This document shows, piece by piece, positions 4,475-46,170 of a stretch of 64,000 nucleotides of DNA. This DNA comes from Candidatus Omnitrophota bacterium. Lineage in GTDB: Bacteria > Omnitrophota > Gorgyraeia > Zapsychrales > Zapsychraceae. Position 1 is the stretch's first letter. The number at the start of each line of letters is the position of its first letter. The position numbers and the translations under genes were made by a program. Under the pieces are notes generated by a model. That model was given only the letters and a program-made list of their open reading frames with translations, did no database searches and was not told where the DNA came from. The stretch lies in NCBI GenBank assembly GCA_050250375.1, contig JBFWOS010000001.1:1086361-1150360 (forward strand). The letters are read 5' to 3'.

Positions 4475-5674
4475 TTATTTCATAAAAACCGAATCGTAGA
4501 CCTGTTCGGGTGAAATATCTTTTAAGCACAAATTATCCCGGCACGCCGAGTTGCGATGGTTAAAAACGGACAGACAAGGAGAACACGGGATTCCTGAATA
4601 AAATATTGTAATACGTTCACCGAGCGGCGCAAAGATCTTGGGAGTTTCCGGCCCAAAAAGGACAAATTGCCTGACTTTTGTCAATGCCGCCAGATGCGCC
4701 ATCCCGGAATCGTTCACAACCAAGGCTTTTGACACCGACATGAGGGCCAATAATTCCTGCAATGTTGTCTGCCCCATCAGATTAATGCACCTTTGGGGAT
4801 GATTTTGTGTTTGGGTGATCTGTTTTGCGCGTTCCGCCTTATCTTGCTGCCCGACAATCAACACATAGGTGTTATCGTGCGAAAGGATCTTTGTAACCAG
4901 CCGGGTAAAATACTCTAAAGGCCACTCCCTCAAAGGGATACGCCCTTCTCCCGGACATATCAGATAAATCTCCGCGGTTGCGTCAACCCCCAGGCCATTC
5001 AATTTTTTGTACAGAGATTTTTCCTGCTCTTTCGTATGTTGAAAAGAAACCAGATCAAAGCGGTTATCCTCTTTGAGAATTTCAGGCGACAACTTTTCGT
5101 TCTTTTCGACTGCCGTTCCCATCAGCAAATACATTTCACTGACATGGAGATGCGGATTGTATTGAATCTTATGTGTCAGCAGATCTCCGCGGTAAACCCC
5201 TTCAATTGTATACCGATGAAAGCCGACCCGTTTAAAAGCACCGCTCAGATAAGAAAGAATGGCTGTAAACCTGGAAAAAAATTCTAAATCAATCACGACA
5301 TCAAATTTTTCTTTACGTATCTTCCATAATAAGACAAATACACCTTTTACAAAAGCGGCGGGTGAACTTTCATCAATGGTCCACACATGGACTGGAATGG
5401 ATGGAACGAACACCTCAAATAGTTCCCGGTTACTTTTAAATGTTAAATAATGCAGTTCTGCTTGCGGATATTTTGTGTTCAACTTTTTAAGTAGGGGATA
5501 AGATAAAATGATCGCTCCGAGTTCCGATGGCTTGATGAACAAGATCTTAGACGGATCCTTTAGATCGCGGGAATCCGGAAAAAACAGACTCAATATCTTA
5601 TGCCATAACGTCAATATAAAACAAACGGGAATACCGATCAAATAATCCACCCGTTTCATAAATGTAAATCCCAT
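4475..5674 (-). CDS. Glycosyltransferase family 9 (heptosyltransferase-like)
   Basis: GT9 architecture. C-terminal VVNDSGMAHLAAL matches the conserved (D/N)SGxMHLAAA heptosyltransferase motif. There is an extra Cys-rich C-terminal tail. Confidence 0.7.
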   Translation of the reverse strand: MGFTFMKRVDYLIGIPVCFILTLWHKILSLFFPDSRDLKDPSKILFIKPSELGAIILSYPLLKKLNTKYPQAELHYLTFKSNRELFEVFVPSIPVHVWTIDESSPAAFVKGVFVLLWKIRKEKFDVVIDLEFFSRFTAILSYLSGAFKRVGFHRYTIEGVYRGDLLTHKIQYNPHLHVSEMYLLMGTAVEKNEKLSPEILKEDNRFDLVSFQHTKEQEKSLYKKLNGLGVDATAEIYLICPGEGRIPLREWPLEYFTRLVTKILSHDNTYVLIVGQQDKAERAKQITQTQNHPQRCINLMGQTTLQELLALMSVSKALVVNDSGMAHLAALTKVRQFVLFGPETPKIFAPLGERITIFYSGIPCSPCLSVFNHRNSACRDNLCLKDISPEQVYDSVFMK

Positions 5675-5681
5675 AACGCCT

Positions 5682-7058
5682 CTATTCCTTAAAAAAACTT
5701 TGGGTGATCACGTCCGCTATGTTTCCTGCAATCAGTTTAATGCCGTCGGTTGATAAATGGCCGAAATCTCCGGCAAAATTGTCTACAAAATATTGTTCAT
5801 ACGGCTTCTGACTCAGGGCGTCTTTGAAAATCTTCTCATTGTCCACAAACACAACATTTCTATCCTTACCTAACATTTTAACCAACGGATCTAATTTTCG
5901 CATGGGGTATTGGACACTGACCAACTTGATCCCCCGGCTCAATACAATTTCCTTAATCTGCCTGTAATTATCAACCGTTAACGGAGATAAATATTGGGCA
6001 TCCAGATCAGCGGCTTTAATAAACTTCTCTTCAGCCTCCTTGACTTTCCCTTGAATCAAGTAATAACTCGCCCACATCTTGCTAAAAATATAACTGTCAG
6101 GAAATTTCTCATCAGCCTTTTGTAAGACCTGCTCAAGCTTATCATATTCTTTCTGTTTAAAATAAATCTGAGCCAGCTTTTCATATGCTTCGTCCGAGTC
6201 AGGAATGTTCTGTATCATGGCTAAAACCGTTTCTTCCGCCAAGGAATATTTCATCGCGTAAAAATACCGCATGCTTAACAGACTATACGCTTCTTCATTC
6301 TTTGGATCAAGCTCTATGGCTCTTTTTAAATAGCTGACAGCCAAATCCATTTCCGCATAATACGAATAAATCCCCCCAAGGTTGGAATAAATCGGTGAAT
6401 AATCCGGATCAATCTTCATTGCTTTCTTTAATACCAATTCGGCCTCGTCAAATTCCAATCTATCCATATAATCATAGACCTGTTCCATCAATTTTGTCAT
6501 ACGAGGATCCTCATGAGACAAAACGTAATCCTCTTCCTTTTCAGAATTCCTGGATTGAGCATGTAGGCGAATATGATTCAACAACCGATATACCTTCAAC
6601 CGTTTCACGGCCAAAATAAACCAATTATCTTTATCATTTCCAAGCACTTCTTCCGTAACGTCGTTTCTTCCGTCATTAATTCCAATCATGGTGATAACCA
6701 TGTCCGGGGCGTATTTGCTCAGATTCTCTTTTAAATTAGAAAGGATAATACCGCTGGTTACACCCAGAATACCTTCATTAATGACCCGGAATTTGATTCC
6801 TAAATTTTTTTGATTTAATATTTTTTCCAGCTGATAGGGATACGAATGTTCCAGGGTTCCAGAAAACGTTGTCGATTCGCCGATACATAATATCCGGTAA
6901 GCTCCGGTTTCTTTCAAAGCCTGATGATTTTTATAAGATTGATAATATTTAAATACAAAGCCAGACAGTCGCATTCCGGTTTCGACAAAAATAACGGTCA
7001 TAATGAATCCAACCGCGATTAGAATAATTTTCTGCTTACCCGTTGTCTTGTCTTTCAT
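5682..7058 (-). CDS. TM-anchored SGNH/GDSL hydrolase with inserted TPR-repeat domain (paralog 1 of 4)
   Basis: N-terminal TM helix. Block I is ILCIGESTTFSG (catalytic Ser), block III is MIGINDG. A ~200-aa TPR region follows (repeated AEEAY...LG...Y pattern). Block V is FAGDFGHLS (DxxH). Confidence 0.7.
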   Translation of the reverse strand: MKDKTTGKQKIILIAVGFIMTVIFVETGMRLSGFVFKYYQSYKNHQALKETGAYRILCIGESTTFSGTLEHSYPYQLEKILNQKNLGIKFRVINEGILGVTSGIILSNLKENLSKYAPDMVITMIGINDGRNDVTEEVLGNDKDNWFILAVKRLKVYRLLNHIRLHAQSRNSEKEEDYVLSHEDPRMTKLMEQVYDYMDRLEFDEAELVLKKAMKIDPDYSPIYSNLGGIYSYYAEMDLAVSYLKRAIELDPKNEEAYSLLSMRYFYAMKYSLAEETVLAMIQNIPDSDEAYEKLAQIYFKQKEYDKLEQVLQKADEKFPDSYIFSKMWASYYLIQGKVKEAEEKFIKAADLDAQYLSPLTVDNYRQIKEIVLSRGIKLVSVQYPMRKLDPLVKMLGKDRNVVFVDNEKIFKDALSQKPYEQYFVDNFAGDFGHLSTDGIKLIAGNIADVITQSFFKE

Positions 7059-7068
7059 GAACTTTCTG

Positions 7069-7770
7069 TCATTTCTTCCTGAAGATTAATTGAATAAAAT
7101 CAGCCATCGCTGTTCCCACCACTTTAATATTCGCCCCCGTTGGTACTCCTCCTTCACGGACAAAATGCTCAATCGGCACTTCTTTAATCCTGGCTTTTTT
7201 AACACGGGCATTAATAAACACATGTGTATAAAACGCTCCGGCGTGCGAGTCAATCCCTTCCGTTTCTAAGAACTGTTTATGGAACAATTTAAACCCGCAA
7301 TTGATATCTTTAGACTTAATCCCGAAGGCCGCTCCAACGCAAAAGGTATATAATTTCCCTAACATAATCCGGTGGACCGGATCGACCCGCTTTGAACGGT
7401 AACCGGCTATAATGTCATAGTCTCTGGTATAATTGAGCATCGGATCGATGGAGTTAATCTTAATCTGGCCGTCAGAATCCATAAGCAGAATCCATTCGTG
7501 CCTGGATCGCTCAATCCCCGAAATTAACGCCTTTCCATACCCTTTATTTACCGGAAGAGTGACCACCGTAACATGGTTATAAGATTTCCCCAAATCTTTT
7601 AAGATATCAGGTGAGCGGTCAGTACTGCCATCGTCTACCAGGATTATTTCATACCCGGTAATATTCTTGTGGGAATGAAGATGATTGTATACTTCTTCAA
7701 CGGTCTTTCGGATATTGGATTCTTCATTATAAACCGGAAGAATGACAGATAGGGTCACTTGATCGCTCAT
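7069..7770 (-). CDS. Glycosyltransferase family 2, polyprenol-phosphate sugar synthase-like (DPM1/ArnC-like)
   Basis: LSVILPVYNEESNI ... EIILVDDGSTDRS (DxD-type GT-A fold). 233 aa, soluble. 4-nt overlap with the downstream radical SAM gene. Confidence 0.75.
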   Translation of the reverse strand: MSDQVTLSVILPVYNEESNIRKTVEEVYNHLHSHKNITGYEIILVDDGSTDRSPDILKDLGKSYNHVTVVTLPVNKGYGKALISGIERSRHEWILLMDSDGQIKINSIDPMLNYTRDYDIIAGYRSKRVDPVHRIMLGKLYTFCVGAAFGIKSKDINCGFKLFHKQFLETEGIDSHAGAFYTHVFINARVKKARIKEVPIEHFVREGGVPTGANIKVVGTAMADFIQLIFRKK

Positions 7771-9065
7771 ATCAACGTAATTAGACGCCCGACAAATAAC
7801 TTGAAACTTCGTATGAGCGTGAGCATGTTTGAACTGAGCAAATAGGCAGGCCTCAGATAGTACTTTAAATAAGTTTTACGGATATGCCGGTCGATGTATT
7901 TGTTAAAATTGATGTCAGGCATATAAACATTGCTTTTAAGATAAGGGTATACTTTATGAAATGATACAAAATTTGTGTTTAGTTCCTTGGCGAATTGAAA
8001 GGTTTCATTCCGGTCACTGTCCGATTCTTCCTTCAATCCGAACATATAAAAAGCCAGGGTCTTGATACCGGCCTGTTTGCACATCCTGACCCCTTCTTTG
8101 ATCTTCTCCGGAGAAATATGTTTATTTGTCAGATCCAGGTATTTCTTTGTGCCGCTTTCAACGCCAACATGGATCAATTGACAGCCGGCCGCTTTCATCT
8201 TCTTTAATATTTCCGGATCTACCGAATCAGCCCGGGTCTGGCAGCACCATTTGAAATCGTACTTCTTTTCGATGAGAAAATCACACATCCTTGAAACCTG
8301 CGCCTTATAATGTAGAAATTCAAGATCCATAAAATAAGCTGTTTTGACCCCGTGCTCCTCAACAGCAACCTGAATCTCTTTACAAATCTGTTCGCTGGTT
8401 TTGACCCGCAGTTTCGGTTCGTACATGATCTTGTTGCAGAATTTGCAGCCAAAATTACAGCCGCGGCCCAATTCGAACAGGACAAAATCTTTTCCGAGGA
8501 TTTCATAAAAGTATTTCCTGATATCCAGCAGATGAAACGCCGGAACGGGCAGATCGGTCAACTCAAAATTTCCCCGGTCCGGATTAGATTTGAAATGACC
8601 GTTTTCCCGATAACTGATGCCGGTGATTTGGGAAAGTTCCTGATCCTGACAGATATCATCCACAATGTATTCAGGCCCCCCGCGGATCACGGCCATAGCC
8701 CCGGTATTTTCTAATACCGTCACAGGGTCAACCGTCCCATGATAACCCATGATATAAAAATTATCCGTGTGTTCTTTAATTACTTTTACCGTTTCATAAA
8801 AAGCCGTCATATTAATATTGGGACATTGCCAGCGGTCAAGCGATGAGGATGTAATAAATATTTTATCGTAACCCATTAAATGGGTTTTTAATTTATGAGG
8901 TTTGATTCGCAAAGCATGCGCGTCGAGGATGCGGACAAAATGCCCTCTTTGCTCCAGGATCGCGGCACAATTAGCCAGGCACAGAGGCGGCCAGATACGG
9001 TTATACGTATGCTCTCCCTTTCCATAAGGGTACGGCCAGTAAGGTTTAATCAATAATATTTTCAT
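7767..9065 (-). CDS. B12-binding domain radical SAM protein
   Basis: N-terminal cobalamin-binding-like domain, then FELGRGCNFGCKFCNK (CxxxCxxC). Confidence 0.8.
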   Translation of the reverse strand: MKILLIKPYWPYPYGKGEHTYNRIWPPLCLANCAAILEQRGHFVRILDAHALRIKPHKLKTHLMGYDKIFITSSSLDRWQCPNINMTAFYETVKVIKEHTDNFYIMGYHGTVDPVTVLENTGAMAVIRGGPEYIVDDICQDQELSQITGISYRENGHFKSNPDRGNFELTDLPVPAFHLLDIRKYFYEILGKDFVLFELGRGCNFGCKFCNKIMYEPKLRVKTSEQICKEIQVAVEEHGVKTAYFMDLEFLHYKAQVSRMCDFLIEKKYDFKWCCQTRADSVDPEILKKMKAAGCQLIHVGVESGTKKYLDLTNKHISPEKIKEGVRMCKQAGIKTLAFYMFGLKEESDSDRNETFQFAKELNTNFVSFHKVYPYLKSNVYMPDINFNKYIDRHIRKTYLKYYLRPAYLLSSNMLTLIRSFKLFVGRLITLI

Positions 9066-9068
9066 AGT

Positions 9069-10286
9069 CTAAAAAAACTGTATGATTTTTCTTAACGTTT
9101 CAATAAACAACCGAACTTCTTCTTCCGTATTATACGCATAGAGGGATACTCTCAAACTCGGTGTCAGCCGGTGTCTTTTATACCCCGCGTGACAGCAGTG
9201 CACGCCGCTGCGGGTCATGATGTTTTCCGTCTGGTCCAGAATAATGGACAATTCACCTGAATCCATTCCTTCAACATAAAAATTGATAATCCCGGACCGT
9301 AAATCAGGATCCTGCGGTCCGATTATCCGGACTTTTGGCCAGCTTTTAATCGTGTCGGTCATCAGCCGGTTGAGCATGGATACATGCGCTCTGATTTCTT
9401 TCAGGCCTGTCTTCGTCAAATATTCGATGGCCGCCGTAACGCCTGACGCCCCCGCGTAATTCTGCAGACCAGCTTCAAACCGGTCGGGGACTTTCGATAA
9501 AACAAAAGAATTGGCGCTAACATCATCAACGGTTTCTCCTCCGATATACAACGGCTCCAGATTATCCAGATGTTTCTTCTTAGCATAAAGACATCCCATT
9601 CCGCTGGGGCCAAGCATCTTATGAAACGAAAAAGCGAAAAAGTCAGCATCAAGTTTTTGTACATCAATTGAATGATGGGCGATACTCTGCGCGCCGTCAA
9701 CCAAAACCAATGCGCCGTGTTCATGGGACAACCGGATTATATCCTCAATCGGAAACGTGTACCCCGTAATATGGCTCGTGTGCACGATGCTGACCAATTT
9801 AGCCCCTTCTTTTAAAAGAGCAACAAACCTTTCTTGATCGAATTTCAAATCCTCGGTCAGGCCAAAAATTCTTAAAACGGTCTCTTTCTTTCTTCCAATC
9901 ATCTGCCAGGGTAAAAAATTCGAATTGTGTTCCAGGCTGCTTGTCAGAACCACTTCACCCTTCAAAAAATTTATGCCGTTCGCGACAAGATTAATGGATT
10001 CCGTCGCATTCTTGGTGAAAACGATTTCATCCGCGCTCTTGGCGTTAATAAATCTCTGAACAGACTTCTTGGCCTGTTCATAGGCGGACGTTGTTTTCAG
10101 TCCGAATTTATGAACCGACCGTTTATGACAGCTGGGATGAACCATATAATACTCGTTCATGGCCTCCACCACCTGTCTCGGTCGTAACGTCACACAGGCA
10201 TTATCAAAATAAACCGGCTTTTTCCCTTTACTCACGCTTTCTAACGAAGGGAAATCTTTTCTCAATTGATTGCAATCAAAACCCAT
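9069..10286 (-). CDS. Cysteine desulfurase (class V aminotransferase, SufS/CsdA-like)
   Basis: PLP lysine motif SFHKMLGPSGMG. Active-site Cys region RSGVHCCHAG. Overall SufS-like length of 405 aa. Confidence 0.8.
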   Translation of the reverse strand: MGFDCNQLRKDFPSLESVSKGKKPVYFDNACVTLRPRQVVEAMNEYYMVHPSCHKRSVHKFGLKTTSAYEQAKKSVQRFINAKSADEIVFTKNATESINLVANGINFLKGEVVLTSSLEHNSNFLPWQMIGRKKETVLRIFGLTEDLKFDQERFVALLKEGAKLVSIVHTSHITGYTFPIEDIIRLSHEHGALVLVDGAQSIAHHSIDVQKLDADFFAFSFHKMLGPSGMGCLYAKKKHLDNLEPLYIGGETVDDVSANSFVLSKVPDRFEAGLQNYAGASGVTAAIEYLTKTGLKEIRAHVSMLNRLMTDTIKSWPKVRIIGPQDPDLRSGIINFYVEGMDSGELSIILDQTENIMTRSGVHCCHAGYKRHRLTPSLRVSLYAYNTEEEVRLFIETLRKIIQFF

Positions 10287-10290
10287 GATC

Positions 10291-10656
10291 TTACTTAAAC
10301 CATAATATGACCGGAAAAATTACGCTAATCCAGATCATCAAAAATATTGTTAGATTGAAATTTCTGTATATCATCCCGGAGAATTTCGGAGAAACGGAAA
10401 AAAACCTCCCGGCGATCTTGCACCGGTATAAAGGAATAAACGGCTTCTTATGAATAAGGTTCAGATTCGCCCGGATAACGACCATAAGAAAATTTTTCGT
10501 CCGTCTGGCCGTTGGAACGACAAAACTGAATAAATAAAAAAAGGGCAGCACAACAGCCGACGCAACCAGCATCGGCACAGACAGTGTCAGCAAACCGAAC
10601 AAATTCGGCCCCTTATCTTCCATACTATAACCGCAACAACCTGTTTCACCAATCAT
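10291..10656 (-). CDS. Hypothetical small membrane protein (two predicted TM segments)
   Basis: ORF fills the gap between the cysteine desulfurase and the PP-loop gene. Hydrophobic stretches LFGLLTLSVPMLVASAVVLPFFYLF and LTIFLMIWISVIFPVILWF. No recognisable family. Confidence 0.3.
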   Translation of the reverse strand: MIGETGCCGYSMEDKGPNLFGLLTLSVPMLVASAVVLPFFYLFSFVVPTARRTKNFLMVVIRANLNLIHKKPFIPLYRCKIAGRFFSVSPKFSGMIYRNFNLTIFLMIWISVIFPVILWFK

Positions 10657-10660
10657 AAGA

Positions 10661-11515
10661 TTACCTTTCGATCAGTTTATACAATCTGCTTTCCGGGCCT
10701 TTTTCCACAAACTGATCCAGCTCCCGGGTAAAAGTCGCGATCTTGTCCTTATAAAAGACAAGAGTCGCTTGCTGATATTCATCATAAGTATGATCCGCCA
10801 GGTACAACCATTTTACAAAAATATTAAAAAGAATAAACTGAAAACAGCGCGGCTGCATTTTACGGTCCAACGCGGTGCCTTTGACATTTTCAGACGGCAT
10901 CAGACCGAGTTCATAAAGCTTCCGCCCGGTCGTTTGTGTCTGCGTCGCTGTATTACAAGAAGTCTTGTTGTCCTGCGTAAAAAATCGCTCCAATCTGAGA
11001 CGGTCAGTAAATTCCAGATCCTGCGGGCCATCATATTTAAAGACCGGATTGGTGTAAGTAATCCCAAAACGGGCGTACATGTCCCCGTATTCATTAATGA
11101 TTGTAGCCATCTGGTCGGGAAAAAGGTGCATCCCCTGATTCGCGCCGTCACAGACATTGGGTATTTGGTTCTCGAGGCAAAAGATCGCGGTACGCACATG
11201 CATGGCCAGCTTGCATAATCCGCAAATAGTCAGCAGAAAAAAGCCATGTTTTTTAATATTGCTCAAATATCGTTCGTAAAACACATACCGTGTCAGTTTC
11301 TCTACCTTGATGATATGAAACTCAAATTTATTCTGACCGTATTTATCCTGCAGTTTTTTGACATTAATCATCGGATTGGTGACCGAAGAAAACGCAAACC
11401 GGTCGTAGGTGATCAAATGGATCTTGTCGTATTTTTCGGCCATTAACGCGGCCGTTAATGTCGAATCTGTCCCTCCGGAAAATAATGTCGCTGTTTCATT
11501 TCGTCTCATAAACAA
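10661..11515 (-). CDS. PP-loop ATP pyrophosphatase superfamily protein with CxxC...C cluster (TtcA/TtuA-like thiolation or LarE/QueC-like)
   Basis: N-terminal SGGTDST (SGGxDS PP-loop) within the first 20 aa. CGLC at ~100 and an isolated Cys at ~123. 284 aa. Confidence 0.65.
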   Translation of the reverse strand: MFMRRNETATLFSGGTDSTLTAALMAEKYDKIHLITYDRFAFSSVTNPMINVKKLQDKYGQNKFEFHIIKVEKLTRYVFYERYLSNIKKHGFFLLTICGLCKLAMHVRTAIFCLENQIPNVCDGANQGMHLFPDQMATIINEYGDMYARFGITYTNPVFKYDGPQDLEFTDRLRLERFFTQDNKTSCNTATQTQTTGRKLYELGLMPSENVKGTALDRKMQPRCFQFILFNIFVKWLYLADHTYDEYQQATLVFYKDKIATFTRELDQFVEKGPESRLYKLIER

Positions 11516-11696: not shown

Positions 11697-11701
11697 TTAT
11701 T

Positions 11702-13195
11702 TTATCCGCTGGCGGCCATAAAAGATTCTTTCTCCTGTTTACCCGTCTGTCCCTCCGTTACAGACTGCAGGATATACGCTTGTATGATCAATCCCAAAGC
11801 GTTCATTAAATTTTGGGCGTATTTCCACTTATCCGGATACTTTCTAAATCCCCGCCTGATACGGCTCCATTTGAAATAAAAACGCCGCTGTGCCTTTAAA
11901 ATCATCCGGTTTAAATCCTCAGGCGACACTTCCGCTTGTGAACGTTTAACCGAATAATAAGCGATATCTTTAATCTGTTCAAAGATTTTCCGGTTGTCGG
12001 CCGATTCCTTAAAACCGGATTCGTAAATTTTATTAACGTCGTCATAATCAGTCGCTTTAAAAAACGAAGCCACATCTAATTCAGAGTTGACGGCAAAATC
12101 GATGGTCCGGTTAATCTCTTCTTCCGATTCGGATAAATGCCCAAGCATAAAATACCCGCCGGTAATGATCCCTCTCTCTGAAGTCTTGGCAATCATCTCG
12201 TTCACCTGTTGGATATTCAGGTTCTTTCTAAAGGCCTTCTGCAATCGGGAAGATGCGGACTCGATCCCGTAAACTAATTTATAGGTTCCAGCCTGTTTCA
12301 ATAAATCCAGCAGTTCTTCCGTCATAATATCTGCCCTGACGCCATGAGGAAAGGCAAGACTGATGTTTAATCCGGCCTCAATGATCAACCGGCTGATCTT
12401 TTTAGCCCGTTCATTGTCATAGTTAAAAACGGCATCATAAATATGAAATTCTTTCGCCTCGAATCGGGTATGGAGATATTTTATTTCTTCGACCACATGT
12501 TCAGGGGAGCGGGCGAGAAATTTCTTTCCATAAGTTTCACGGCAAAACGTGCACTTAAAAGGACACCCCCGGGATGTAAGGATAGGAATATAAAAATCTT
12601 CCTTAAGCGCGCCGTTCCAATTGGAATACCGGGCATACTCTTTCACGTCGATTAGATCCCAGGCGAACGGGATTATATTGAACGCATCCAAATTTTCCGG
12701 ATATTCACGCGGGGATGTAGTCACAGTCCGATCGTCGTTCTTGTAGACCAATCCCGAAATATTTTGAAAGCCTCCCTTTTGGTTTCCCAAAACACCGATT
12801 AATTCTCCCACGGTCAGTTCAGGCTCCCCAACTACCACAAAATCAATATGCCGATCCTCACAAAGATATTGACTGGAAAATGTGGCCAACTGTCCAAACA
12901 CAACAACTTTAACCCAGGCCTTCCAACTCTTGGATAAAGCCGCCAGCCGATGGACCAGACCAGCCTCCCACGACAACGCGTAAAACACGACCACATCCGG
13001 ATCAAAATTCTCTATTTCCTTCCTGACATCATTCTCGGCCATATCGCCTATGCCGGTGTCCGTCACCTTGAACTCATACTTGTCCGGGAATCTTTCCTGG
13101 ATATGAGAAACGACATACAGAATCTCCAGAGGAGGGATCGGACCGCCCGTACCGACCGTAATATGCGTTCTAATTAAATGGATCTTCTTAATCAA
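11702..13195 (-). CDS. B12-binding domain radical SAM protein
   Basis: LTSRGCPFKCTFCRETYG motif. N-terminal Rossmann-like B12-binding region. Confidence 0.8.
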   Translation of the reverse strand: MIKKIHLIRTHITVGTGGPIPPLEILYVVSHIQERFPDKYEFKVTDTGIGDMAENDVRKEIENFDPDVVVFYALSWEAGLVHRLAALSKSWKAWVKVVVFGQLATFSSQYLCEDRHIDFVVVGEPELTVGELIGVLGNQKGGFQNISGLVYKNDDRTVTTSPREYPENLDAFNIIPFAWDLIDVKEYARYSNWNGALKEDFYIPILTSRGCPFKCTFCRETYGKKFLARSPEHVVEEIKYLHTRFEAKEFHIYDAVFNYDNERAKKISRLIIEAGLNISLAFPHGVRADIMTEELLDLLKQAGTYKLVYGIESASSRLQKAFRKNLNIQQVNEMIAKTSERGIITGGYFMLGHLSESEEEINRTIDFAVNSELDVASFFKATDYDDVNKIYESGFKESADNRKIFEQIKDIAYYSVKRSQAEVSPEDLNRMILKAQRRFYFKWSRIRRGFRKYPDKWKYAQNLMNALGLIIQAYILQSVTEGQTGKQEKESFMAASG

Positions 13196-13207
13196 CAGCT
13201 TGTCCTT

Positions 13208-14671: not shown

Positions 14672-14695
14672 AAAAGCCTTTCCTTAGATTTTATT

Positions 14696-14908: not shown

Positions 14909-14936
14909 AATTTCCTGGTAAAGCCTAGTGTATTAT

Positions 14937-25965: not shown

Positions 25966-26742
25966 TTAATAAATTTTCCTGATAATAAGGTTAGTCAAGC
26001 CGGGTGACAACCGGTTTAACAAATATAGCGGTATACACTTTTTTCCGATGACGACCATTTTTTTGTTCTTTTCAATGGCCGTCAGAATGGCCTGTGCAAC
26101 GGTGTCGGCACTGATCCCTGTTCTTTTATGTTGATACGGTTCATCACGGTACAAAACGTTTGGTTCGAATTCCGTTTCAACTTTCCCAGGACAGACCAAA
26201 ATAACCCGGATATTATCTTTCCTTGCATCTTCAGCCAGCGATTCGGTCAATCCGTTGACAGCAAACTTGGAAGACGAATACAATCCGCAATCATAAAATC
26301 CTTTGATTCCCGCCACCGAAGAAACATTCAGGATAACTCCTCCTCTCCGTTTCTTCATATATGGATAAACGGCACGGGTACAATACAATACTCCGTACAA
26401 ATTCGTAGCCAGCATGTCCCGATACAAATCCATCGGGCCCGTGATGATCGACCCCTTAAATCCCACACCGGCATTATTAATCAAGACATCCACTTGTCCG
26501 TATTTCCGGATCACTTGTTCCACCAAGTGCTGAACCTGATCTTCCTTCCCGACATCAGCCGGGATGACCATCGTATCACCACCGGTTAATTTACCTGCGA
26601 CAGCGTCAAGTTTATCTTTTCGGCGGGAAACAAGTACAACCCTGGCGCCTTTCTGGGATAACAACCCTGCACAGCTTTGTCCGATCCCCGAGGATGCACC
26701 TGTCACAATGACCACCTTGTTAGTAAAATCATATTTTTTCAT
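25966..26742 (-). CDS. Short-chain dehydrogenase/reductase (SDR) family oxidoreductase
   Basis: VVIVTGASSGIGQS (TGxxxGxG NAD(P)-binding motif). 258 aa. 4-nt overlap with the upstream DegT gene. Confidence 0.85.
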   Translation of the reverse strand: MKKYDFTNKVVIVTGASSGIGQSCAGLLSQKGARVVLVSRRKDKLDAVAGKLTGGDTMVIPADVGKEDQVQHLVEQVIRKYGQVDVLINNAGVGFKGSIITGPMDLYRDMLATNLYGVLYCTRAVYPYMKKRRGGVILNVSSVAGIKGFYDCGLYSSSKFAVNGLTESLAEDARKDNIRVILVCPGKVETEFEPNVLYRDEPYQHKRTGISADTVAQAILTAIEKNKKMVVIGKKCIPLYLLNRLSPGLTNLIIRKIY

Positions 26743-39140: not shown

Positions 39141-39219
39141 CTTCTCCTGAAAAAACCTATCAAAATTATATCATCCTGTATAAACTCTATCAAGCTCCGG
39201 AATCACATCATCAACCAAC

Positions 39220-40563
39220 TTAAGGTTGACAGGCTCCCCCCGGACAATTCGCAGCACCGGCACAACAATCACCATTATTTACCCCTCCGACACAAACACC
39301 GGTTTGACCCGGAAGACAACAATATGGTCCTCCTGGAGCCCCGCCGCCGACACAGTTATTACTACAGCAATCCGCAGGAACCGCACAATCAATTCCATTT
39401 GGAGTACAGGATCCAGCCGTATCAAACTGGCAACACCCTAGAACTTCTTGATTCCCTGCATTACAGCCACTTATATCTGCTACACCAGTTCCACACGCAT
39501 TCTGTTGAACAGCCATACAACAATATCCGCCCCCTCCAATCCATTCACACCAAGGAAAAAATTCACATCTGGCAAAACGATTGTCGATGGCCGGTGTAGG
39601 ATATAACAAAGCCACGTTTGTTAAAAAAGATGTGCATGGCGTGTGTTCTTGACAGCCGCTGAACGGATTCCAATTGCAGGCAGATCCATAAATCTGTTCA
39701 CATTGGTCAAAGGGTAAGCCCACGCAACCTGTTGGTTCAGGGGGGGCGGGCGGGGGTATTCGTACACCGCAATCACCGGCCGAAAGCGTACAATCTATAA
39801 TACACACACCTAAAATATTGATTGATCCCGACGGACATTCACAGGATGTTGCCCCAAAACCCGGAACAAACGAAGTCGCACATTCCCACTGACATTTGGG
39901 TGCACTCCCGACAGGAGCACTGCACTTACCTTCTTCAACAAAAACAACATTCTGACTGGCAGGCAAATTGATATTGTCTTGAGGACAGATGTCCGTAGCG
40001 TATTCAGGGTCTCCTGGATTGGGTGGATTTAAACATTGATTTAAACAATTTCTATTAAATTGGCATTCCACTCGGGTGGGATTGTTGTGATCAGGATCGC
40101 CCCCGCAAGAATATAAGGCAGGAACCTCATCGGCGGCACATCCCTGAGTACCGCAATTAATTGGCACAGGCAATTGAACGGGCGTGGTACAACAAGCCGG
40201 CGTTTCAGTACATAAATAATTTAAGCCGCCCGGAGGGGAATTATAACCCAGAGGATTACAAATCCATGCTTGAGTGGCTTCGTATTCTTCACATGTTCCA
40301 TAACCGCAACATGGCGGTAAACTGCATGGTTCTTGATAACTACAAGTCCCGGTAACATCGATGACTCCAGGGGGACTTGCCCCGATTGGATCTTGGAAGG
40401 AATCTGTGACAGAGTCCTCCCAGCCTTTGATATTGGCATTCCAAGAACGGATTACGTAAGGGCTCATGACATAAACCCCGGCCAGGACTAAAATAATCAA
40501 AAGGGCATATTCAATAATACTCTGCCCTTTTTCAGAAAACAATTTTTGAAAAAGCTTCCGCAT
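39220..40563 (-). CDS. Flp-pilin-like (class III signal peptide-like) N-terminus fused to a ~400-aa Cys/Pro/Gly-rich extracellular domain
   Basis: N-terminus KGQSIIEYALLIILVLAGVYV fits the Flp motif G-x4-EY followed by a hydrophobic helix. The rest has >50 Cys (CC, CxC, CxxC patterns) and low hydrophobicity. Confidence 0.5.
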   Translation of the reverse strand: MRKLFQKLFSEKGQSIIEYALLIILVLAGVYVMSPYVIRSWNANIKGWEDSVTDSFQDPIGASPPGVIDVTGTCSYQEPCSLPPCCGYGTCEEYEATQAWICNPLGYNSPPGGLNYLCTETPACCTTPVQLPVPINCGTQGCAADEVPALYSCGGDPDHNNPTRVECQFNRNCLNQCLNPPNPGDPEYATDICPQDNINLPASQNVVFVEEGKCSAPVGSAPKCQWECATSFVPGFGATSCECPSGSINILGVCIIDCTLSAGDCGVRIPPPAPPEPTGCVGLPFDQCEQIYGSACNWNPFSGCQEHTPCTSFLTNVALLYPTPAIDNRFARCEFFPWCEWIGGGGYCCMAVQQNACGTGVADISGCNAGNQEVLGCCQFDTAGSCTPNGIDCAVPADCCSNNCVGGGAPGGPYCCLPGQTGVCVGGVNNGDCCAGAANCPGGACQP

Positions 40564-40693: not shown

Positions 40694-43600
40694 CTATAGA
40701 CTTTGATGGCATTGAAGCAATACATCCGCTCCTAATTTCCAGCAATGATACAGGTCTCCCAGGAACGCCGCTGGACACGGAGCCCCTTCATTTATTGTAT
40801 AGCCGGGATACCCGGAGAAAGCCGCCCCGCAGGCAGGAGAGAATGGAATCAACTGTGTTGTTTGCTGAATTTTAATCCATTCCCCGTCCTCCGCACAAGC
40901 ACCCGCATCAACTGAATACCCGGAATTACATTGATATTCACATTTTGGAGCCCCGCAGGTAATCACCAGAGATCTGTTCATATTCGTCCCACCCGGGATA
41001 TTCGTATCATCCCCGGAACAATATGCTGCATTGGCCGGTACGCTACCGATACAAATATTCGGGTCGCACACTCCACCGCCGTCATGATATGTATCCGTGC
41101 AGATGTATTCACATTTCGTTCCAACCGTGCACGCAGGCACAACCGTTCGTGGCACGTCGGAATTGCCGGGGATATTAGCATCGTCTCCGGAACATATTGT
41201 TGTGTTTGCAGGCACAGCTCCTATACATTGGTTAAGATTGGTACACCCTGAACCATCGAAATTAAATCCGTCATCACAAATATATTCACATTTTGTTCCA
41301 GCAGTACAAGCTGCCACGACCGTGCGCCCGACATCAGCATTCCCCGGAATATTGATATCATCTCCGGAACAAATCGTCGCATTAATTGGAATAGCCCCTG
41401 TACATATATTTACATCACATGAAGCCCCTCCGAAATTATATCCATCATTACAAATATATTCACATTTAGTTCCAGCCGTACAAGCACCCACCAGAGTACG
41501 GGAAACATCAGAATTGCCCGGGATATTTGTTCCGTCACCGGAACATATGGACGCGTTGGAAGGAGTTGCTCCTGTACAGACATTGACATCACATTGGTTG
41601 GCTCCTCCGTCGTGATATCCGCTGTTGCAAGTATACTCACACAAAGTTACTGTACAAGCCGATACGGTTGTAACCGGCGTATCCGCCAATAATCCGGTGT
41701 TATCTCCCGGACAAATCAGTGCGTTCGCATCAGGTGTTCCTGTACACATGAACGGACGGCACGTGTTCGCGTCTTTGGTAAATCCCGGATCACAGGTGTA
41801 TTCACACTTTGTTCCGCCGGTACATGCATTCGCCACGGTCCGGCCGACATTTAAATTTCCCGGAATGTTTGTATCATCTCCGCTGCATAACGTCGCGTTG
41901 GATGGAACCGTTCCGGTACAAATATTGACGTCACAAACCCCACCGGACTCGTGGAATCCGTCATTACACAAATATTGACAATAAATCGGCAACGTACAAG
42001 CGCCTACGGCCGTGCGGACAACGTCCGAGTTCCCAGGAATTCCGGTATCGTCCCCTGCACAGAGTGTTGCGTTTGACGGAACAGTCCCCGTACAGGCATT
42101 TAAATCACACACCCCGGCGTCATAATTGTATCCGTTGCTGCAGGTATATTCACATTTTGTTCCAATCGTACAGACCGGAACCAAAGTTCGAGCCACATCA
42201 CTGTTCCCAGGAATATTCGTGCCATCCCCCGTACACAATCCCGCATTTGGCGGTACCGCCCCGGTACAGACATTGGCCACACAAATCGTTCCGTTAAAAT
42301 TGAAACCACTGCTGCAGGTATATTCACATTTTGTTCCGGCCGTACAAGCCGCCACCAAGGTTCGGGTAACATCACCATTACCGGGAATATTAATGTTATC
42401 CCCGATACACAAAGTTGCATTAGCCGGCGGCGCTCCGGTACAAACATTGGCATCACATTGATTAATTCCGGCGTCCTTATATCCGCTGTTGCATGTATAT
42501 TCACACATCGTTGCTGTACAGGCTGATACTGTTGTGACCGGCGTATCCGCCAGTAACCCAATATTATCTCCCGGACAGATGGTTGAATTCGAAGCCGGGG
42601 TGCCGATACAATCAAACGTTTCCACCACACAAGCTGTACCGGCGAGATTTAATTCATATCCGGGGTCACAAATGTATTCACACTTGGTCGCTGTACAAGC
42701 GCCAACAAGTGTTAAAGCTAAATTGGCCCTTCCGGTTATATTGGTCCCATCCCCCGCACACAATGTTGCATTAGACGGCGCTGATCCGGTACAAACATTA
42801 ACGTCACACTGGTTAACCCCCGCATCATGATATTCCGTGTTACACCGGTATTCACATTTTGTACCAAACGTACAGGTATTTACCGTCGAAACTGACACAT
42901 CCACGGTCAATCCTGCATTATCTCCAGCACACAGTACAGAATTCGGATCAGGCACTCCGGTACATGCCGGCGCACGACAATCGTTTCCATCAAGAACAAA
43001 ACCGGCATTACATTCATATTCACATTGTGTTCCGGCCGTACACCCTCCTGTAATAACGGCTGTTTTGGGAGTATTCGCCGGCAAATCATCATTATCATTC
43101 AGACAGATTGTGCTATTTGTCGGATCCGGGCCGGTACATAGATAAAGGGGAACACAGGTTATTCCACTGCGGACATAAAACGGCCGGCAGACATGCTCGC
43201 ACTTCACGGGCTGGGTACACGTATCGACTAAGGTATTCGGGGTGTCTGCTGTAAGGCCGGTATCATCCGGTTCGCATATGGTATCAAGATCATAATCGAC
43301 ACAGCACAAATTAGAATGGGCGGGTGCGGGACCGGTACATTGAAACAGAACACAGGCAGTACCATCACTGTAATATCCCGGGTCGCATAAATATTCACAT
43401 TTAGTTCCCGCTGTACATGCGCTGACCGGAGTCCGTGGAGTATCTGCACTTAAACCCGTATCATCGCCGGCACAGAGTGATGAATTAGTTGGAACAGCCC
43501 CGGTACAGACATACGGCACACAACTACCAGCGGAATAATAGTAACCGGCATTACAGCTATATTCACATTTTGTCGGGCCGGTACAAGAAGCAACAAGCGT

Positions 43601-44956
43601 AATCGGAACATCTCCTCTGGTCAGGCCGGCATTATCTCCCGAGCATATTGACGCGTTCGCCGGAGCTGCGCCGGTACAGACAAAAGTACAACTTCCACAG
43701 GTGTACTCATCTCCGCACGGGTTAATACTGCAATCTCCGGTATAATTATATCGGCAGTTTGAACCCGATACCTGACAACCGTCGCTTAAACTGACCGGAC
43801 AATCGGTATAACTGGCACAAGCCGGTGCGATCGCGTAACAGGCCTGAACCGGAGGTTCCAAACAATATCTGCATTCACCGGATGATAATTTTGTATAATC
43901 ATCGCATAAATATTCACATTTTGTTCCGGCCGTACAGGTCGCTACTGAAGAATTCGGTGTATTTGCTGTCAGTCCGGCATTATCTCCCGGGCATAAAGTA
44001 GAATTAATCGGGACCGCGCCGGTACAAGAACAAAAACCGCAATCGGCATTACAACTAAATCCACTGTTGACTGTCCCGCAAGTCTCCGTCCCGGTACAGC
44101 ACCCGTCCCCGCAGACATCGGTCGTGCAATCCCCAGGACAGGTACACTTATTTTCCACTCCGTTACAAATTAAATCCCCGCAAACCGGCACCGCGCAATC
44201 CGACGCACAGCTCACACTATCTTCCGTACCGTCGCATGTTCCGTCCCCGCAGCATGGCGAACAGCTCCCACACGTGCCGCATTGACCGGTGCAATCAAAA
44301 TGGGAATCCCCGCAGGAACACGCCCCGCATTCAACACAGGGATTATACCCCGGCCCGGCCCCGCCGGTGCAGTGTTCAGTACCGACAGCACAAAACCCGT
44401 CACCGCAGACAATCGGACAGGCCCCGCAGTCACTCGTACACATCGGGTCCCCTGTCTCCGGAGCAGGCAACATGCTATCGTTAGATCCGCAGCTTTCCTG
44501 AAAACCCCAATACGTTACGGCATTGGAACACACCCCATCACCGCAAGTCGGACATTCGGCCATAGTCACACCGAGAAATGAACCTCCCAGCACAGCGGCT
44601 TTAAAACTGTTCCACTGGGTCTGAGTCGCCGTGGGAATAAAATATTCTATAATGGACGTGTTGGATATATCCCAGCATTCCGCTTCACCAACATTAGGTG
44701 TTGTGTTGGAGGTATAACTCAAATTAATTCGTAGAGAAGGAATCGTTCCAAGACCTGCATTCCCATCGAGCATATATCCGCCGTTTTCCCATCCATAAAT
44801 CCGGCAGTTGACATTTCCTGACGGGCCGTCATCACAATAACATCCCGTAGCCGGCGGCACACAAGGATCACCGACCGCTGAAAATGCCGCAGAGGCAAAA
44901 CCCAGCATTATGGTTGTAATGAGACCGCCTATTTTTCCCCAAGAACGTTTTTTCAT
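40694..44956 (-). CDS. Giant secreted cysteine-rich repeat protein (about 17 tandem six-Cys modules of roughly 57 aa)
   Basis: N-terminal signal peptide (MKKRSWGKIGGLITTIMLGFASAAFSA). The repeat consensus is roughly CTGxxPxNxxLCxGDxxxIPGNxDVxRTxVxACTxGTKCEYxCxxGYxxDGxxCDVN. Many spurious overlapping ORFs on both strands come from the repetition. Confidence 0.8.
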   Translation of the reverse strand: MKKRSWGKIGGLITTIMLGFASAAFSAVGDPCVPPATGCYCDDGPSGNVNCRIYGWENGGYMLDGNAGLGTIPSLRINLSYTSNTTPNVGEAECWDISNTSIIEYFIPTATQTQWNSFKAAVLGGSFLGVTMAECPTCGDGVCSNAVTYWGFQESCGSNDSMLPAPETGDPMCTSDCGACPIVCGDGFCAVGTEHCTGGAGPGYNPCVECGACSCGDSHFDCTGQCGTCGSCSPCCGDGTCDGTEDSVSCASDCAVPVCGDLICNGVENKCTCPGDCTTDVCGDGCCTGTETCGTVNSGFSCNADCGFCSCTGAVPINSTLCPGDNAGLTANTPNSSVATCTAGTKCEYLCDDYTKLSSGECRYCLEPPVQACYAIAPACASYTDCPVSLSDGCQVSGSNCRYNYTGDCSINPCGDEYTCGSCTFVCTGAAPANASICSGDNAGLTRGDVPITLVASCTGPTKCEYSCNAGYYYSAGSCVPYVCTGAVPTNSSLCAGDDTGLSADTPRTPVSACTAGTKCEYLCDPGYYSDGTACVLFQCTGPAPAHSNLCCVDYDLDTICEPDDTGLTADTPNTLVDTCTQPVKCEHVCRPFYVRSGITCVPLYLCTGPDPTNSTICLNDNDDLPANTPKTAVITGGCTAGTQCEYECNAGFVLDGNDCRAPACTGVPDPNSVLCAGDNAGLTVDVSVSTVNTCTFGTKCEYRCNTEYHDAGVNQCDVNVCTGSAPSNATLCAGDGTNITGRANLALTLVGACTATKCEYICDPGYELNLAGTACVVETFDCIGTPASNSTICPGDNIGLLADTPVTTVSACTATMCEYTCNSGYKDAGINQCDANVCTGAPPANATLCIGDNINIPGNGDVTRTLVAACTAGTKCEYTCSSGFNFNGTICVANVCTGAVPPNAGLCTGDGTNIPGNSDVARTLVPVCTIGTKCEYTCSNGYNYDAGVCDLNACTGTVPSNATLCAGDDTGIPGNSDVVRTAVGACTLPIYCQYLCNDGFHESGGVCDVNICTGTVPSNATLCSGDDTNIPGNLNVGRTVANACTGGTKCEYTCDPGFTKDANTCRPFMCTGTPDANALICPGDNTGLLADTPVTTVSACTVTLCEYTCNSGYHDGGANQCDVNVCTGATPSNASICSGDGTNIPGNSDVSRTLVGACTAGTKCEYICNDGYNFGGASCDVNICTGAIPINATICSGDDINIPGNADVGRTVVAACTAGTKCEYICDDGFNFDGSGCTNLNQCIGAVPANTTICSGDDANIPGNSDVPRTVVPACTVGTKCEYICTDTYHDGGGVCDPNICIGSVPANAAYCSGDDTNIPGGTNMNRSLVITCGAPKCEYQCNSGYSVDAGACAEDGEWIKIQQTTQLIPFSPACGAAFSGYPGYTINEGAPCPAAFLGDLYHCWKLGADVLLQCHQSL
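40950..43750 (-). repeat. Intragenic tandem coding repeats (~170-nt period) inside the giant Cys-rich gene
   Basis: Recurrent nucleotide blocks such as ggtacaaaatgtgaatat / cggaacaaaatgtgaatatac visible every ~170 nt on the plus strand. Confidence 0.7.
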
Positions 44957-44988
44957 CTTTTGTTTTTTCCAGGCCGATTTTTATAAAT

Positions 44989-46170
44989 TCAGCGGGAAGA
45001 ATCCATTTCCATGCCGCGCTTGATTTGATTAATTTCTTTTCTCAAAGAATCAATCTCTTCACTTTGATGTTCGATCAATACCTGCTGTTCTTTAATCGCT
45101 TCAATCATCGGAGCGATCAAATTTCCGTATTTCACATATTTTCTGCCGGACGTTTCATCCGTATGAACCAACTCAGGATAAACTTTTTCGACATCCTGGG
45201 CGGTAATCCCGATATCCTGTTGGCCATTCTCTTTCCAGGTATAACTCAAACCTTCAATTTGTTTAATACCGCTCAACCCTAAAACCGGTTTAAAATTCTC
45301 CTTCAGACGGGCATCCGAAGAATATAAATAAGCATTCGCCGTAACGGTCCCGTTAACATCAAATTCGGTGGTCGGAGCGGCATTTAAAACCCCGATCCTC
45401 CGGGTAGATTGAAGGATCGTCAATAAATGGCTGGCATTATCCGCATCATAAACGTAAAATTGGGCCCCTCCGCCGATGTCACTGTGAACATCAAAACCAC
45501 CGCCAGGAGCTATGGCCAAATCACCGTTGGTCGTGGAAATCGCCGGATTTGCCCCGTTAAAAATCAAATCATTGGTCAACTCAACATCACCGTTGACCTC
45601 CAGCTCCGATGTAGGACTGGTTGTACCGATTCCGACATTTCCCGCACTTGTTATACCCAGACGAAACGCCTCAGCCCCTTCAGCACCGCCCCAAATTGAA
45701 AATCCGTCGGTCAAGCTGGTTTGATGCGCGCGCAATTCCCAAACGGAGTCGGCGGCATCTGTGTTCTGAATCCTGATCGCCGTAAAATCCGTAGCTGCGC
45801 TCTGAACATGCAGTTTGGTCGCCGGAATATTTGTCCCGATGCCTATATCTGCGGTAGACCATGATATGGGATAAAGATCCGTACCGTCCAAAGTCCATTC
45901 ACCAACAGAGTTGGTATAAGAAGTTCCGTCGCAAAACTGTAAATCCCCTGAAACATCAACATACATGGTCCCGGTCGTTGAAACGCTGCAAGCCGGTGGA
46001 GACGCATTCGGGGCCAGTCTTAATGATTGATATACACCAAAGGGAGACGGATAATACGTTGTCATCGTCAAAGTCTCTGCCTGGGCTAAAACCGGCATCA
46101 CCATCAAGGTGATGGTAAGCATCGTGATTCTATATTTTTTTATCATGTCCCTGCCTTTTTGTTGCGTCAA
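44989..46170 (-). CDS. Secreted fibre-like protein with C-terminal peptidase S74 intramolecular chaperone auto-processing domain
   Basis: Signal peptide (MIKKYRITMLTITLMVMPVLAQA). C-terminus SDARLKENFKPVLGLSGIKQIEGLSYTWKE...DIGITAQDVEKVYPELVH...YGNLIAPMIEAIKEQQ matches the SDxRxK...IGxIAQE chaperone-of-endosialidase/tail-fibre domain. Gly/Thr/Ser-rich middle. Confidence 0.7.
   Translation of the reverse strand: MTQQKGRDMIKKYRITMLTITLMVMPVLAQAETLTMTTYYPSPFGVYQSLRLAPNASPPACSVSTTGTMYVDVSGDLQFCDGTSYTNSVGEWTLDGTDLYPISWSTADIGIGTNIPATKLHVQSAATDFTAIRIQNTDAADSVWELRAHQTSLTDGFSIWGGAEGAEAFRLGITSAGNVGIGTTSPTSELEVNGDVELTNDLIFNGANPAISTTNGDLAIAPGGGFDVHSDIGGGAQFYVYDADNASHLLTILQSTRRIGVLNAAPTTEFDVNGTVTANAYLYSSDARLKENFKPVLGLSGIKQIEGLSYTWKENGQQDIGITAQDVEKVYPELVHTDETSGRKYVKYGNLIAPMIEAIKEQQVLIEHQSEEIDSLRKEINQIKRGMEMDSSR

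Follow-up and report, generated by a model that had tools for sequence, protein, structure and literature searches.

A conserved Omnitrophota gene cluster of radical-SAM enzymes, GT-C transferases and small exported cysteine-rich peptides as a candidate cell-surface glycosylation system

Three-component systems of extracytoplasmic glycosylation consist of a polyprenol-phosphate-sugar synthase, a flippase, and a GT-C transferase, as described for the Gtr, Arn, CsbB/YfhO, and GT136 pentofuranose systems (PMC11127046; PMC5836110). Pairs of GT2 and GT-C enzymes also perform bacterial protein O-glycosylation, i.e., GtrB/PgtC2 of streptococci and Pgf of S. mutans (bioRxiv 10.1101/2024.05.05.592596) and Ppm1/Pmt of actinobacteria (PMC8698208), and in the arabinosylation of the Pseudomonas pilin the GT-C TfpW is encoded next to its substrate (bioRxiv 10.1101/2020.04.19.049825). 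Sugar C-methylation by B12-dependent (class B) radical S-adenosylmethionine (radical-SAM) enzymes is known from gentamicin and moenomycin, with GenK, GenD1, and MoeK5 as examples (PMC9204698). Here we analyzed a 64-kb window, i.e., the whole stretch of 64,000 nucleotides (nt) from contig JBFWOS010000001.1 of a Candidatus Omnitrophota bacterium, in which a block of 34 co-directional minus-strand genes (positions 4475-46170, ~42 kb) resembles each of these systems in part. We propose, and give the proposal about an even chance of being right, that the block forms one conserved Omnitrophota cell-surface system for lipid-linked, GT-C-dependent glycosylation, in which small exported peptides serve as acceptor. 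The logic leading from GT2 over polyprenol phosphate to GT-C is known. New are the pairing of a dedicated GT-C with small Cys peptides, the conserved B12-radical-SAM/GT2 and SGNH/B12-radical-SAM/PP-loop units, SGNH enzymes with internal tetratricopeptide repeats (TPRs), and a GT-C family that no Pfam model describes. Our literature search found no description of this gene combination in Omnitrophota. The first-pass annotation of the window had gone further and knew of no bacterial system of this composition, but analogues exist in the three-component Gtr, Arn, and Pgf systems, in PMT/Ppm1, and in TfpW. Omnitrophota are abundant and uncultured, they are suspected to be nanobacteria with a host-dependent or predatory life, and their surface biology is little known; in the cluster, candidate substrates come together with a dedicated GT-C, a conserved B12-radical-SAM/GT2 pair, and a riboswitch, which makes it a concrete and testable surface system.

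The proposal is carried by the strict co-evolution of the peptides with one clade of GT-C transferases. In a neighbor-joining tree of 51 GT-C homologues, the peptide-associated enzymes formed a single clade, and two to three tandem peptide genes, ending 100-400 nt before the GT-C gene, were found upstream of every clade member with upstream sequence (~11 distinct lineages) and of none of the ~37 paralogues outside the clade. In the window, this partner is the GT-C encoded at 36608-38284, which most probably acts on the tandem peptides, judging from this comparative evidence. The peptides begin with a basic N-terminus, followed by a hydrophobic stretch of ~20 residues and a signal-peptidase-like AxA/Q site, and the predicted mature products of 41-66 residues mostly start with Gln. 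Three Cys residues are invariant; the first lies at most four residues behind the N-terminus created by cleavage, the second in the middle, and the third 2-6 residues before the C-terminus. The Cys count of the mature part is odd in 61 of the 70 family members. Together with the odd Cys counts in the pilin-like protein described below, this suggests a conserved unpaired Cys that may serve as an intermolecular disulfide or modification site. The peptide family, one of the two unannotated families defined here (the other is the GT-C family without a Pfam model), comprises about 64 representative clusters: a search of 1.84 billion proteins yielded 64 representatives with E at or below 1e-3, and 11 clusters were found in a word-indexed set of 5.8 billion proteins. 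A 3505-aa match to the peptide profile (P0093) is a repeat-rich gliding-type protein and was judged spurious.

The comparison covered the peptide-adjacent GT-C orthologues with their contexts, 79 genome loci, and 14 metagenome loci for the B12-binding radical-SAM enzyme B12a, and further contexts were collected from the side of the peptides and of the 583-aa GT-C. The loci, given below by L numbers, were annotated by phmmer with the window proteins and by a hidden Markov model of the peptides. The same families occur together in relatives at 35-80% identity, and with proteins only 33-50% identical, at least five gene orders were seen. At L002/L102, L103, and L024/L006 (37-48% protein identity) the entire cluster is present in the same order, which runs from S74, the giant repeat protein, the Flp-like protein, the peptides, four to five GT-Cs, a radical-SAM enzyme, and the GT-C with TPRs on to DegT, SDR, the 583-aa GT-C, the DUF3108-like protein, SGNH-TPR, two SPASM and two B12 radical-SAM enzymes, and SGNH. 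Other arrangements of the same families are found at L008-L010, L012, L014, and L099-L101. Among them, L009 is a compact 13-kb version (GT2, B12d, GT-C-TPR, B12c, DegT, B12a, GT9, two peptides, GT-C), L014 has the order B12d, SGNH, B12b, PP-loop, GT-C, GT9, three peptides, GT-C, L099 holds two GT-Cs, B12a, GT2, SGNH, GT9, and peptides, and L100 holds SGNH, PP-loop, B12b, SGNH, peptides, GT-C, and GT9. Since the families are retained together through rearrangement in ~10 lineages, their association reflects functional coupling and not chance, and the link that the first-pass annotation drew between sugar tailoring, transferases, and exported proteins stands as a conserved functional neighborhood.

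Within this neighborhood several smaller units recur. The GT9 gene adjoins the peptide/GT-C pair in all seven lineages outside the subclade of the window, and the pilin-like Cys-rich protein usually accompanies the pair. GT2 directly follows B12a in 12 of the 14 metagenome loci, as it does in the window; these loci comprise 10-kb flanks, and with a distance of 30 kb between B12a and the peptides in the window, absence of the peptides is undecidable there. DegT, SDR, and the 583-aa GT-C invariably occur as a trio, and the SGNH-B12b-PP-loop trio is kept in L014 and L100. The label 'uncultured Planctomycetales/Planctomycetia', carried by L008-L010, L015, L023, L027, and others, is probably coarse or wrong.

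The block encodes four to six exported Cys-rich proteins, six GT-Cs, one GT2, one GT9, a DegT and an SDR enzyme, eight radical-SAM enzymes, a PP-loop ATPase, SufS, and four periplasmic SGNH proteins with TPR inserts (Table 1). All components named in the first-pass annotation are present on the minus strand where it had placed them, and a third peptide gene (38356-38586) is added to them.

Table 1. Genes of the block and regulatory elements associated with it (positions in the 64-kb window; TM, transmembrane; ORF, open reading frame)
Feature	Position	Strand	Remark
GT9 glycosyltransferase, WaaF-like	4475..5674	-	Pfam GT9 clearly matched
TM-anchored SGNH enzyme with TPR insert	5682..7058	-
GT2, polyprenol-phosphate-sugar-synthase-like	7069..7770	-	without C-terminal TM helices
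B12a, B12-binding radical-SAM enzyme	7767..9065	-	highly conserved; 4-nt overlap with GT2 gene
SufS-type cysteine desulfurase	9069..10286	-
121-aa membrane protein	10291..10656	-	no assigned family
PP-loop ATPase (DUF7411 / asparagine-synthetase-like)	10661..11515	-
B12b, B12-binding radical-SAM enzyme	11702..13195	-	part of conserved SGNH-B12b-PP-loop trio
TM-anchored SGNH enzyme with TPR insert	13208..14671	-
TM-anchored SGNH enzyme with TPR insert	14937..16220	-
Radical-SAM enzyme, class B (B12) type	16224..17627	-
B12-binding radical-SAM enzyme	17643..19070	-
Radical-SAM/SPASM enzyme	19067..20152	-
Radical-SAM/SPASM enzyme	20088..21245	-
TM-anchored SGNH enzyme with TPR insert	21486..22886	-
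448-aa membrane protein	22861..24207	-	DUF3108-like C-terminal domain
GT-C, 583 aa, 13 TM	24210..25961	-	no Pfam family; invariably after DegT-SDR
Classical SDR oxidoreductase	25966..26742	-
DegT-family sugar aminotransferase	26739..28055	-
B12-binding radical-SAM enzyme	28067..29575	-
GT-C (PMT_2) with C-terminal TPRs	29744..31636	-	TMTC-like architecture
GT-C, 542 aa	31633..33261	-	no Pfam match; WDDE motif
GT-C (PMT_2)	33248..34906	-
GT-C, YfhO-like	34825..36630	-
GT-C (PMT_2, GT39-like), peptide-linked	36608..38284	-	true start probably 38233
Small exported Cys peptide, 76 aa	38356..38586	-	under 80-aa ORF-list limit
Small exported Cys peptide, 86 aa	38602..38862	-
Small exported Cys peptide, 87 aa	38877..39140	-
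Sigma-70-like promoter match, 11/12, extended -10	39165..39193	-	just upstream of first peptide gene; consensus match only; best of region
447-aa pilin-like (G/QSIIEY) Cys-rich protein	39220..40563	-
1420-aa exported Cys-rich protein	40694..44956	-	CGDG-type repeats N-terminal, then ~17 CCP/Sushi-like repeats
Exported fiber protein, C-terminal S74 intramolecular-chaperone domain	44989..46170	-	true start probably ATG 46146
Terminator-like hairpin (13 bp) + U-run	46175..46206	-	probable expression platform
c-di-GMP-I-class (GGC variant) riboswitch aptamer, S74 gene leader	46221..46301	-	Rfam RF03167

We infer the following route for the system. Judging from family membership, DegT, SDR, the B12-type and SPASM radical-SAM enzymes, the PP-loop ATPase, and GT9 would make at least one unusual sugar in the cytoplasm, and GT2, translationally coupled to B12a as the most conserved B12-binding radical-SAM enzyme, would load it onto polyprenol phosphate. 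The lipid-linked sugar would be flipped across the inner membrane and used at its outer face by the six GT-C-fold transferases, while the four membrane-anchored periplasmic SGNH-TPR enzymes, again by family, may add or remove ester groups. Comparative genomics points to the tandem Sec-exported peptides encoded directly upstream as the acceptor of the GT-C at 36608-38284. The pilin-like Cys-rich protein would be the next most likely acceptor or partner, and the 1420-aa CCP-repeat protein and the S74 fiber, which share domains with it, are presumed to be lineage-specific additions transcribed from a leader with a cyclic di-GMP (c-di-GMP)-class riboswitch. If true, lipid-linked glycosylation by GT-Cs would reach small disulfide-rich peptides as well, and the chemistry of class B radical-SAM enzymes would be tied to primary glycans of the cell envelope instead of to antibiotics.

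The donor side of this route resembles the three-component systems in its ArnC/GtrB/DPMS-related GT2, in GT-Cs that would act outside the membrane, and in the sugar-modifying auxiliary genes alongside. The nearest solved relatives of GT2 are ArnC (E 1e-15), DPMS, and GtrB, all of them polyprenol-phosphate glycosyltransferases, which supports the earlier assignment of a polyprenol-phosphate-sugar synthase feeding the GT-Cs; its best NCBIfam matches, PgfS at the top, ArnC, PpgS, and AglJ, all stay under the cut-off. Unlike these systems, the locus has six GT-Cs instead of one, no recognized flippase, and a GT2 that lacks C-terminal TM helices, and it adds eight radical-SAM enzymes, four SGNH-TPR proteins, and exported peptides encoded inside the cluster. 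With GtrB/PgtC2, Pgf, and Ppm1/Pmt it shares the donor logic and, in the proposed route, exported proteins as acceptors. The targets of those enzymes are Ser/Thr-rich disordered regions of many proteins, whereas the candidate acceptors here are compact Cys-rich peptides that have no invariant Ser/Thr and are paired with a dedicated GT-C, and the scores remain below curated cut-offs. As with TfpW, a structural subunit gene is directly followed by that of a dedicated GT-C predicted to use a polyprenol-phosphate sugar. TfpW modifies a type IVa pilin subunit, whereas the adjacent genes here encode non-pilin Sec peptides, and the pilin-like protein of the cluster is a Cys-rich protein of 447 aa.

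Among the tailoring enzymes, the radical-SAM proteins find their best family matches in the HpnJ/BchE type (class B) and in the AhbD/NirJ/PqqE type (SPASM), all below the cut-offs. As in gentamicin and moenomycin tailoring, class B enzymes are encoded together with glycosyltransferases and aminotransferases, although those are secondary-metabolite pathways and the radical-SAM enzymes here score under all family cut-offs. In moenomycin, the radical-SAM enzyme is accompanied by the asparagine-synthetase-like MoeF5, with which the PP-loop ATPase of the block may be compared. The sole solved relative of this ATPase is an 'asparagine synthetase domain-containing protein' (PDB 9kq6, E 1e-7). A fusion of a PglF-like dehydratase with DegT at L104 points to nucleotide-sugar chemistry. 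Each of the four SGNH proteins is anchored by an N-terminal TM segment with N-in topology, and the catalytic Ser/Asn/Asp-His blocks are intact; Ser62, the Asn/Gly blocks, Asp426, and His434 are invariant among the four paralogues (blocks I GxSxT, III GxND, V DxxH). Their TPR region of ~250 aa is not appended to the SGNH domain but sits inside it, between blocks III and V, where it may, as the first-pass annotation supposed, contribute to the recognition of substrate proteins. Beside these enzymes, the 448-aa protein consists of an N-terminal half with ~6 TM segments and the DUF3108-like domain, and at its position L102 and L103 encode the 238-aa DUF3108-like part only; Pfam searches at E 5 with both halves of this protein and with the 121-aa protein gave nothing useful.

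The first-pass annotation counted six to seven GT-Cs including TMTC-like fusions, and of this count six proteins hold, three by a PMT_2 domain, one as YfhO-like, and two by profile or model, while the TPR fusion is limited to a single GT-C (29744-31636; PMT_2 at residues 60-218, TPRs at roughly 400-617). Metazoan TMTC O-mannosyltransferases combine a GT-C with C-terminal TPRs, and the fusion protein is assigned to them by architecture only; unlike in metazoans, only one of six GT-Cs bears TPRs, and no cadherin-like acceptor is present. L002 has two such fusion genes, and an exact look-up of the 630-aa GT-C gave no match, probably owing to a differently called start codon. The 583-aa protein had no sequence match in Pfam, NCBIfam, or PDB, and PDB sequence searches with it and with the 542-aa protein returned noise only, therefore structure prediction and profile comparison were needed. 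In hhalign, the 542-aa protein aligned over 399 columns with the PMT_2 GT-C profile (97%, E 9e-11), and the alignment brought the WDDE and WFDE motifs into register. The 583-aa family found no match to this profile, though the fold agrees: its AlphaFold 2 (AF2) model, with a mean predicted local distance difference test (pLDDT) score of 89.4, matches GT-C enzymes only (ArnT, DPY19, ALG12, Pmt4, STT3), and DxDxE is invariant in the family. The AF2 model of the peptide-linked GT-C (36608-38284; pLDDT 89.8) has a GT-C_A fold, and D31 and E32, the DE motif of the first external loop, are invariant in its orthologues. No MIR domain was matched in the PMT_2 GT-Cs, and the C-terminal domain of the modeled enzyme is an unrelated alpha/beta domain.

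The integrated glycosylation hypothesis of the first-pass annotation is thus partly supported, and protein glycosylation is the best reading of the block from its sequence; a number of observations nevertheless weigh against it. Among the 34 genes, neither Pfam nor NCBIfam matched a flippase of the GtrA, ArnE/F, MATE, or Wzx type, the 121-aa and 448-aa membrane proteins staying without an assignment, and no nucleoside diphosphate (NDP)-sugar 4,6-dehydratase or prepilin peptidase was found in the window; contrary to what had been supposed, the cluster is therefore not self-contained. All eight radical-SAM enzymes score below the curated family cut-offs, so every substrate assigned to them is putative. 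The GT9 scores 120.5 bits against its nearest family, TIGR02195 (lipopolysaccharide (LPS) heptosyltransferase II, equivalog cut-off 134.6), and such a WaaF-like enzyme would keep a lipid or glycan acceptor open. Foldseek gave the peptide-linked GT-C its lowest E-values with the protein-glycosylating STT3, PglB, and AglB but its top TM-score (0.60) with ArnT, whose acceptor is lipid A, and therefore the fold does not settle the acceptor. The proposal of the first-pass annotation that the exported proteins are the acceptors finds support insofar as the peptides co-evolve with one GT-C clade, but the peptides have no invariant Ser/Thr column (55-68% Ser/Thr in the best columns, Ser+Thr content 8-30%). 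Their grouping as one surface-protein module did not hold, with the S74 and giant repeat proteins restricted to the subclade of the window, absent from most peptide-bearing loci, and placed behind a riboswitch leader of their own. Finally, the expected co-occurrence was found in that the families of the cluster stay together, but many Omnitrophota loci combine a GT-C paralogue, B12/SPASM radical-SAM enzymes, and GT2 without any peptide (L013, L015, L023, L029, L038, L041, and others, in some cases together with a UbiA-like membrane prenyltransferase), which means that the machinery of tailoring enzymes and GT-Cs is not reserved for these exported proteins.

Much of this would also fit enzymes that assemble or modify a glycolipid or polysaccharide of the envelope, i.e., an LPS core/lipid A-type structure or a lipoglycan comparable to the products of Arn or of the mycobacterial Emb/Aft/PimE arrays, with the exported proteins as mere neighbors or the peptides as accessory subunits of the GT-C. 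To the kinship of GT9 with LPS heptosyltransferase II, the missing conserved Ser/Thr, and the common peptide-less clusters, some of which carry UbiA-like genes of the prenyl-phosphoribose type, it can add that ArnT gives the top TM-score for the 583-aa GT-C as well and that DegT, GT2, and GT-C parallel ArnB, ArnC, and ArnT. We consider this explanation a serious but less likely one, as it leaves aside the one-to-one co-evolution and adjacency of the peptides with one GT-C clade and the lowest Foldseek E-values of the peptide-linked GT-C, and as cleavable-looking AxA/Q signals and a probable promoter of their own fit abundant secreted products better than stoichiometric subunits. The Cys pattern of the peptides, the eight radical-SAM enzymes, two of them SPASM proteins with maturases of sactipeptides and other peptides among their relatives, and the position of B12a next to the peptides in L008-L010 might instead indicate precursors similar to ribosomally synthesized and post-translationally modified peptides (RiPPs), which SPASM/B12 enzymes would cross-link or methylate before export with the invariant Cys as thioether donors, glycosylation being secondary or absent. 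This is quite unlikely: the N-termini are of the Sec type and not RiPP leaders, no RiPP recognition element (RRE)/PqqD domain, leader protease, or ABC exporter family occurs among the cluster genes, the constant partner of B12a is GT2 and not the peptides, and in L003-L005 the peptides and GT-C are present with no radical-SAM enzyme within 10 kb. That radical-SAM enzymes are linked to GT-Cs throughout the phylum independently of peptides argues for sugars or lipid-linked sugars as their substrates and against the peptides. Independent operons of surface-protein, polysaccharide, and radical-SAM genes that lie side by side by chance would agree with the nine intergenic gaps >70 nt in the block, the separate riboswitch leader of the S74/1420-aa genes, and the promoter-like site of the peptides, but the persistence of the same families together after extensive rearrangement makes this very improbable indeed.

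Peptide glycosylation could moreover be part of a larger scheme, which we regard as speculative and, taken as a whole, unlikely. The peptides may represent secreted glycopeptides of a new class, matured in the periplasm, to which the dedicated GT-C would add radical-SAM-tailored sugars, possibly at the unpaired Cys and not at Ser/Thr, and which would then join the odd-Cys pilin-like protein and the CCP-repeat adhesin via that Cys or via shared modules, as a cyclic-dinucleotide-regulated attachment structure of host-dependent Omnitrophota.

The 447-aa protein has a pilin-like N-terminus (G/xxxxEY, strictly conserved as G/QSxxEY) and a Cys content of 11%, and its N-terminal motif KGQSIIEYALLIILVLAGV is kept in nine of nine distinct homologues, as is a juxtamembrane motif; the number of Cys is odd in eight of the nine. 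It is far larger than Flp pilins (about 50-80 aa), no Pfam model, Flp included, gave a useful match even at E 5 in searches with the Flp-like N-terminus and with the Cys-rich domains, and no Tad or prepilin peptidase genes were found in the window or in the related loci. The 58-aa repeat of the 1420-aa protein recurs as a single copy in the 447-aa protein, whose C-terminal Cys module of 62 residues shares 50% identity with an extension joined to a small peptide in L002 (8841-9305); P0091 is a second case of such a fusion. The 1420-aa protein has 158 Cys and ~17 six-Cys repeats of 58 aa, of which 12 of 16 (7 of 11 in L024) start with C-T-G-x-x-P-x-N-[AS]-[ST]-L-C, an NxS/T motif. NxS/T sequons are weakly enriched in the window protein (21 vs 16.4±3.8) and more strongly in L024 (24 vs 11.8±2.9). 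Within the repeat gene, tandem DNA duplications at 41257-41594 and 42136-42451 with a period of 174 nt (58 aa) and 76-77% identity indicate a recent repeat expansion. The S74 protein carries a signal peptide and reaches 54.9 bits with PF13884 (cut-off 22); orthologues were found in L001, L002/7, and L024 only.

Control of adhesins and pili by c-di-GMP riboswitches (GEMM-I) is known, and the leader of the S74 gene resembles this arrangement in that an aptamer and a terminator precede exported adhesin-like genes, with PilZ genes nearby. The aptamer belongs to the cluster yet falls just outside 4475-46170. It lies 15 nt upstream of the hairpin and precedes the probable S74 start by ~75 nt, and it matches RF03167 over its full length on the coding strand with 59.5 bits (gathering score 59). 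The same aptamer precedes S74 in L001 (1937-2017), where this model is also matched, and in L024 (1919-1999), where the canonical c-di-GMP-I model RF01051 scores highest (61.2 bits, gathering score 35). Aptamer and hairpin are near-invariant in DNA, with one compensatory stem change, while the flanks have diverged and the proteins of these relatives are only about 45-60% identical. Because of this conserved leader and the three PilZ genes in the window, the S74/repeat/Flp-like end of the cluster is probably under cyclic-dinucleotide control, like adhesins and pili elsewhere. Unlike typical GEMM-I-controlled genes, the window aptamer best fits the GGC variant, for which we know of no established ligand, and its reach is limited to the S74 end of the cluster; no riboswitch was found upstream of peptides or GT-Cs in other lineages. 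The stand-alone PilZ genes lie at 3542-3898, 3905-4231, and 62358-62828, the first two in tandem just downstream of the cluster and beside a GH94-family (cellobiose-phosphorylase-like) gene at 738-3434.

Overlaps or gaps of at most 32 nt make up 24 of the 33 gene junctions of the block, and no intergenic terminators marking operon borders were found inside 4000-23000. The window is chromosomal DNA, and its peptide-linked GT-C and 583-aa GT-C are 100% identical to NCBI proteins from an Omnitrophota contig. Nearly all genes of the window lie on the minus strand, and the flanks of the block consist of housekeeping genes including MnmE, PurH, Era, and MgtE. Searches for tRNAs and mobile-element genes in the window found none, and a genomic island was rejected in view of the housekeeping flanks, the CvpA/MnmE junction kept in L001 and L024, and the lack of integrases. 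Elsewhere in the window, at 52947-55165, a lysine-2,3-aminomutase-like radical-SAM gene is followed at once by a D-Ala-D-Ala-ligase-type ATP-grasp gene, which is an unusual pairing.

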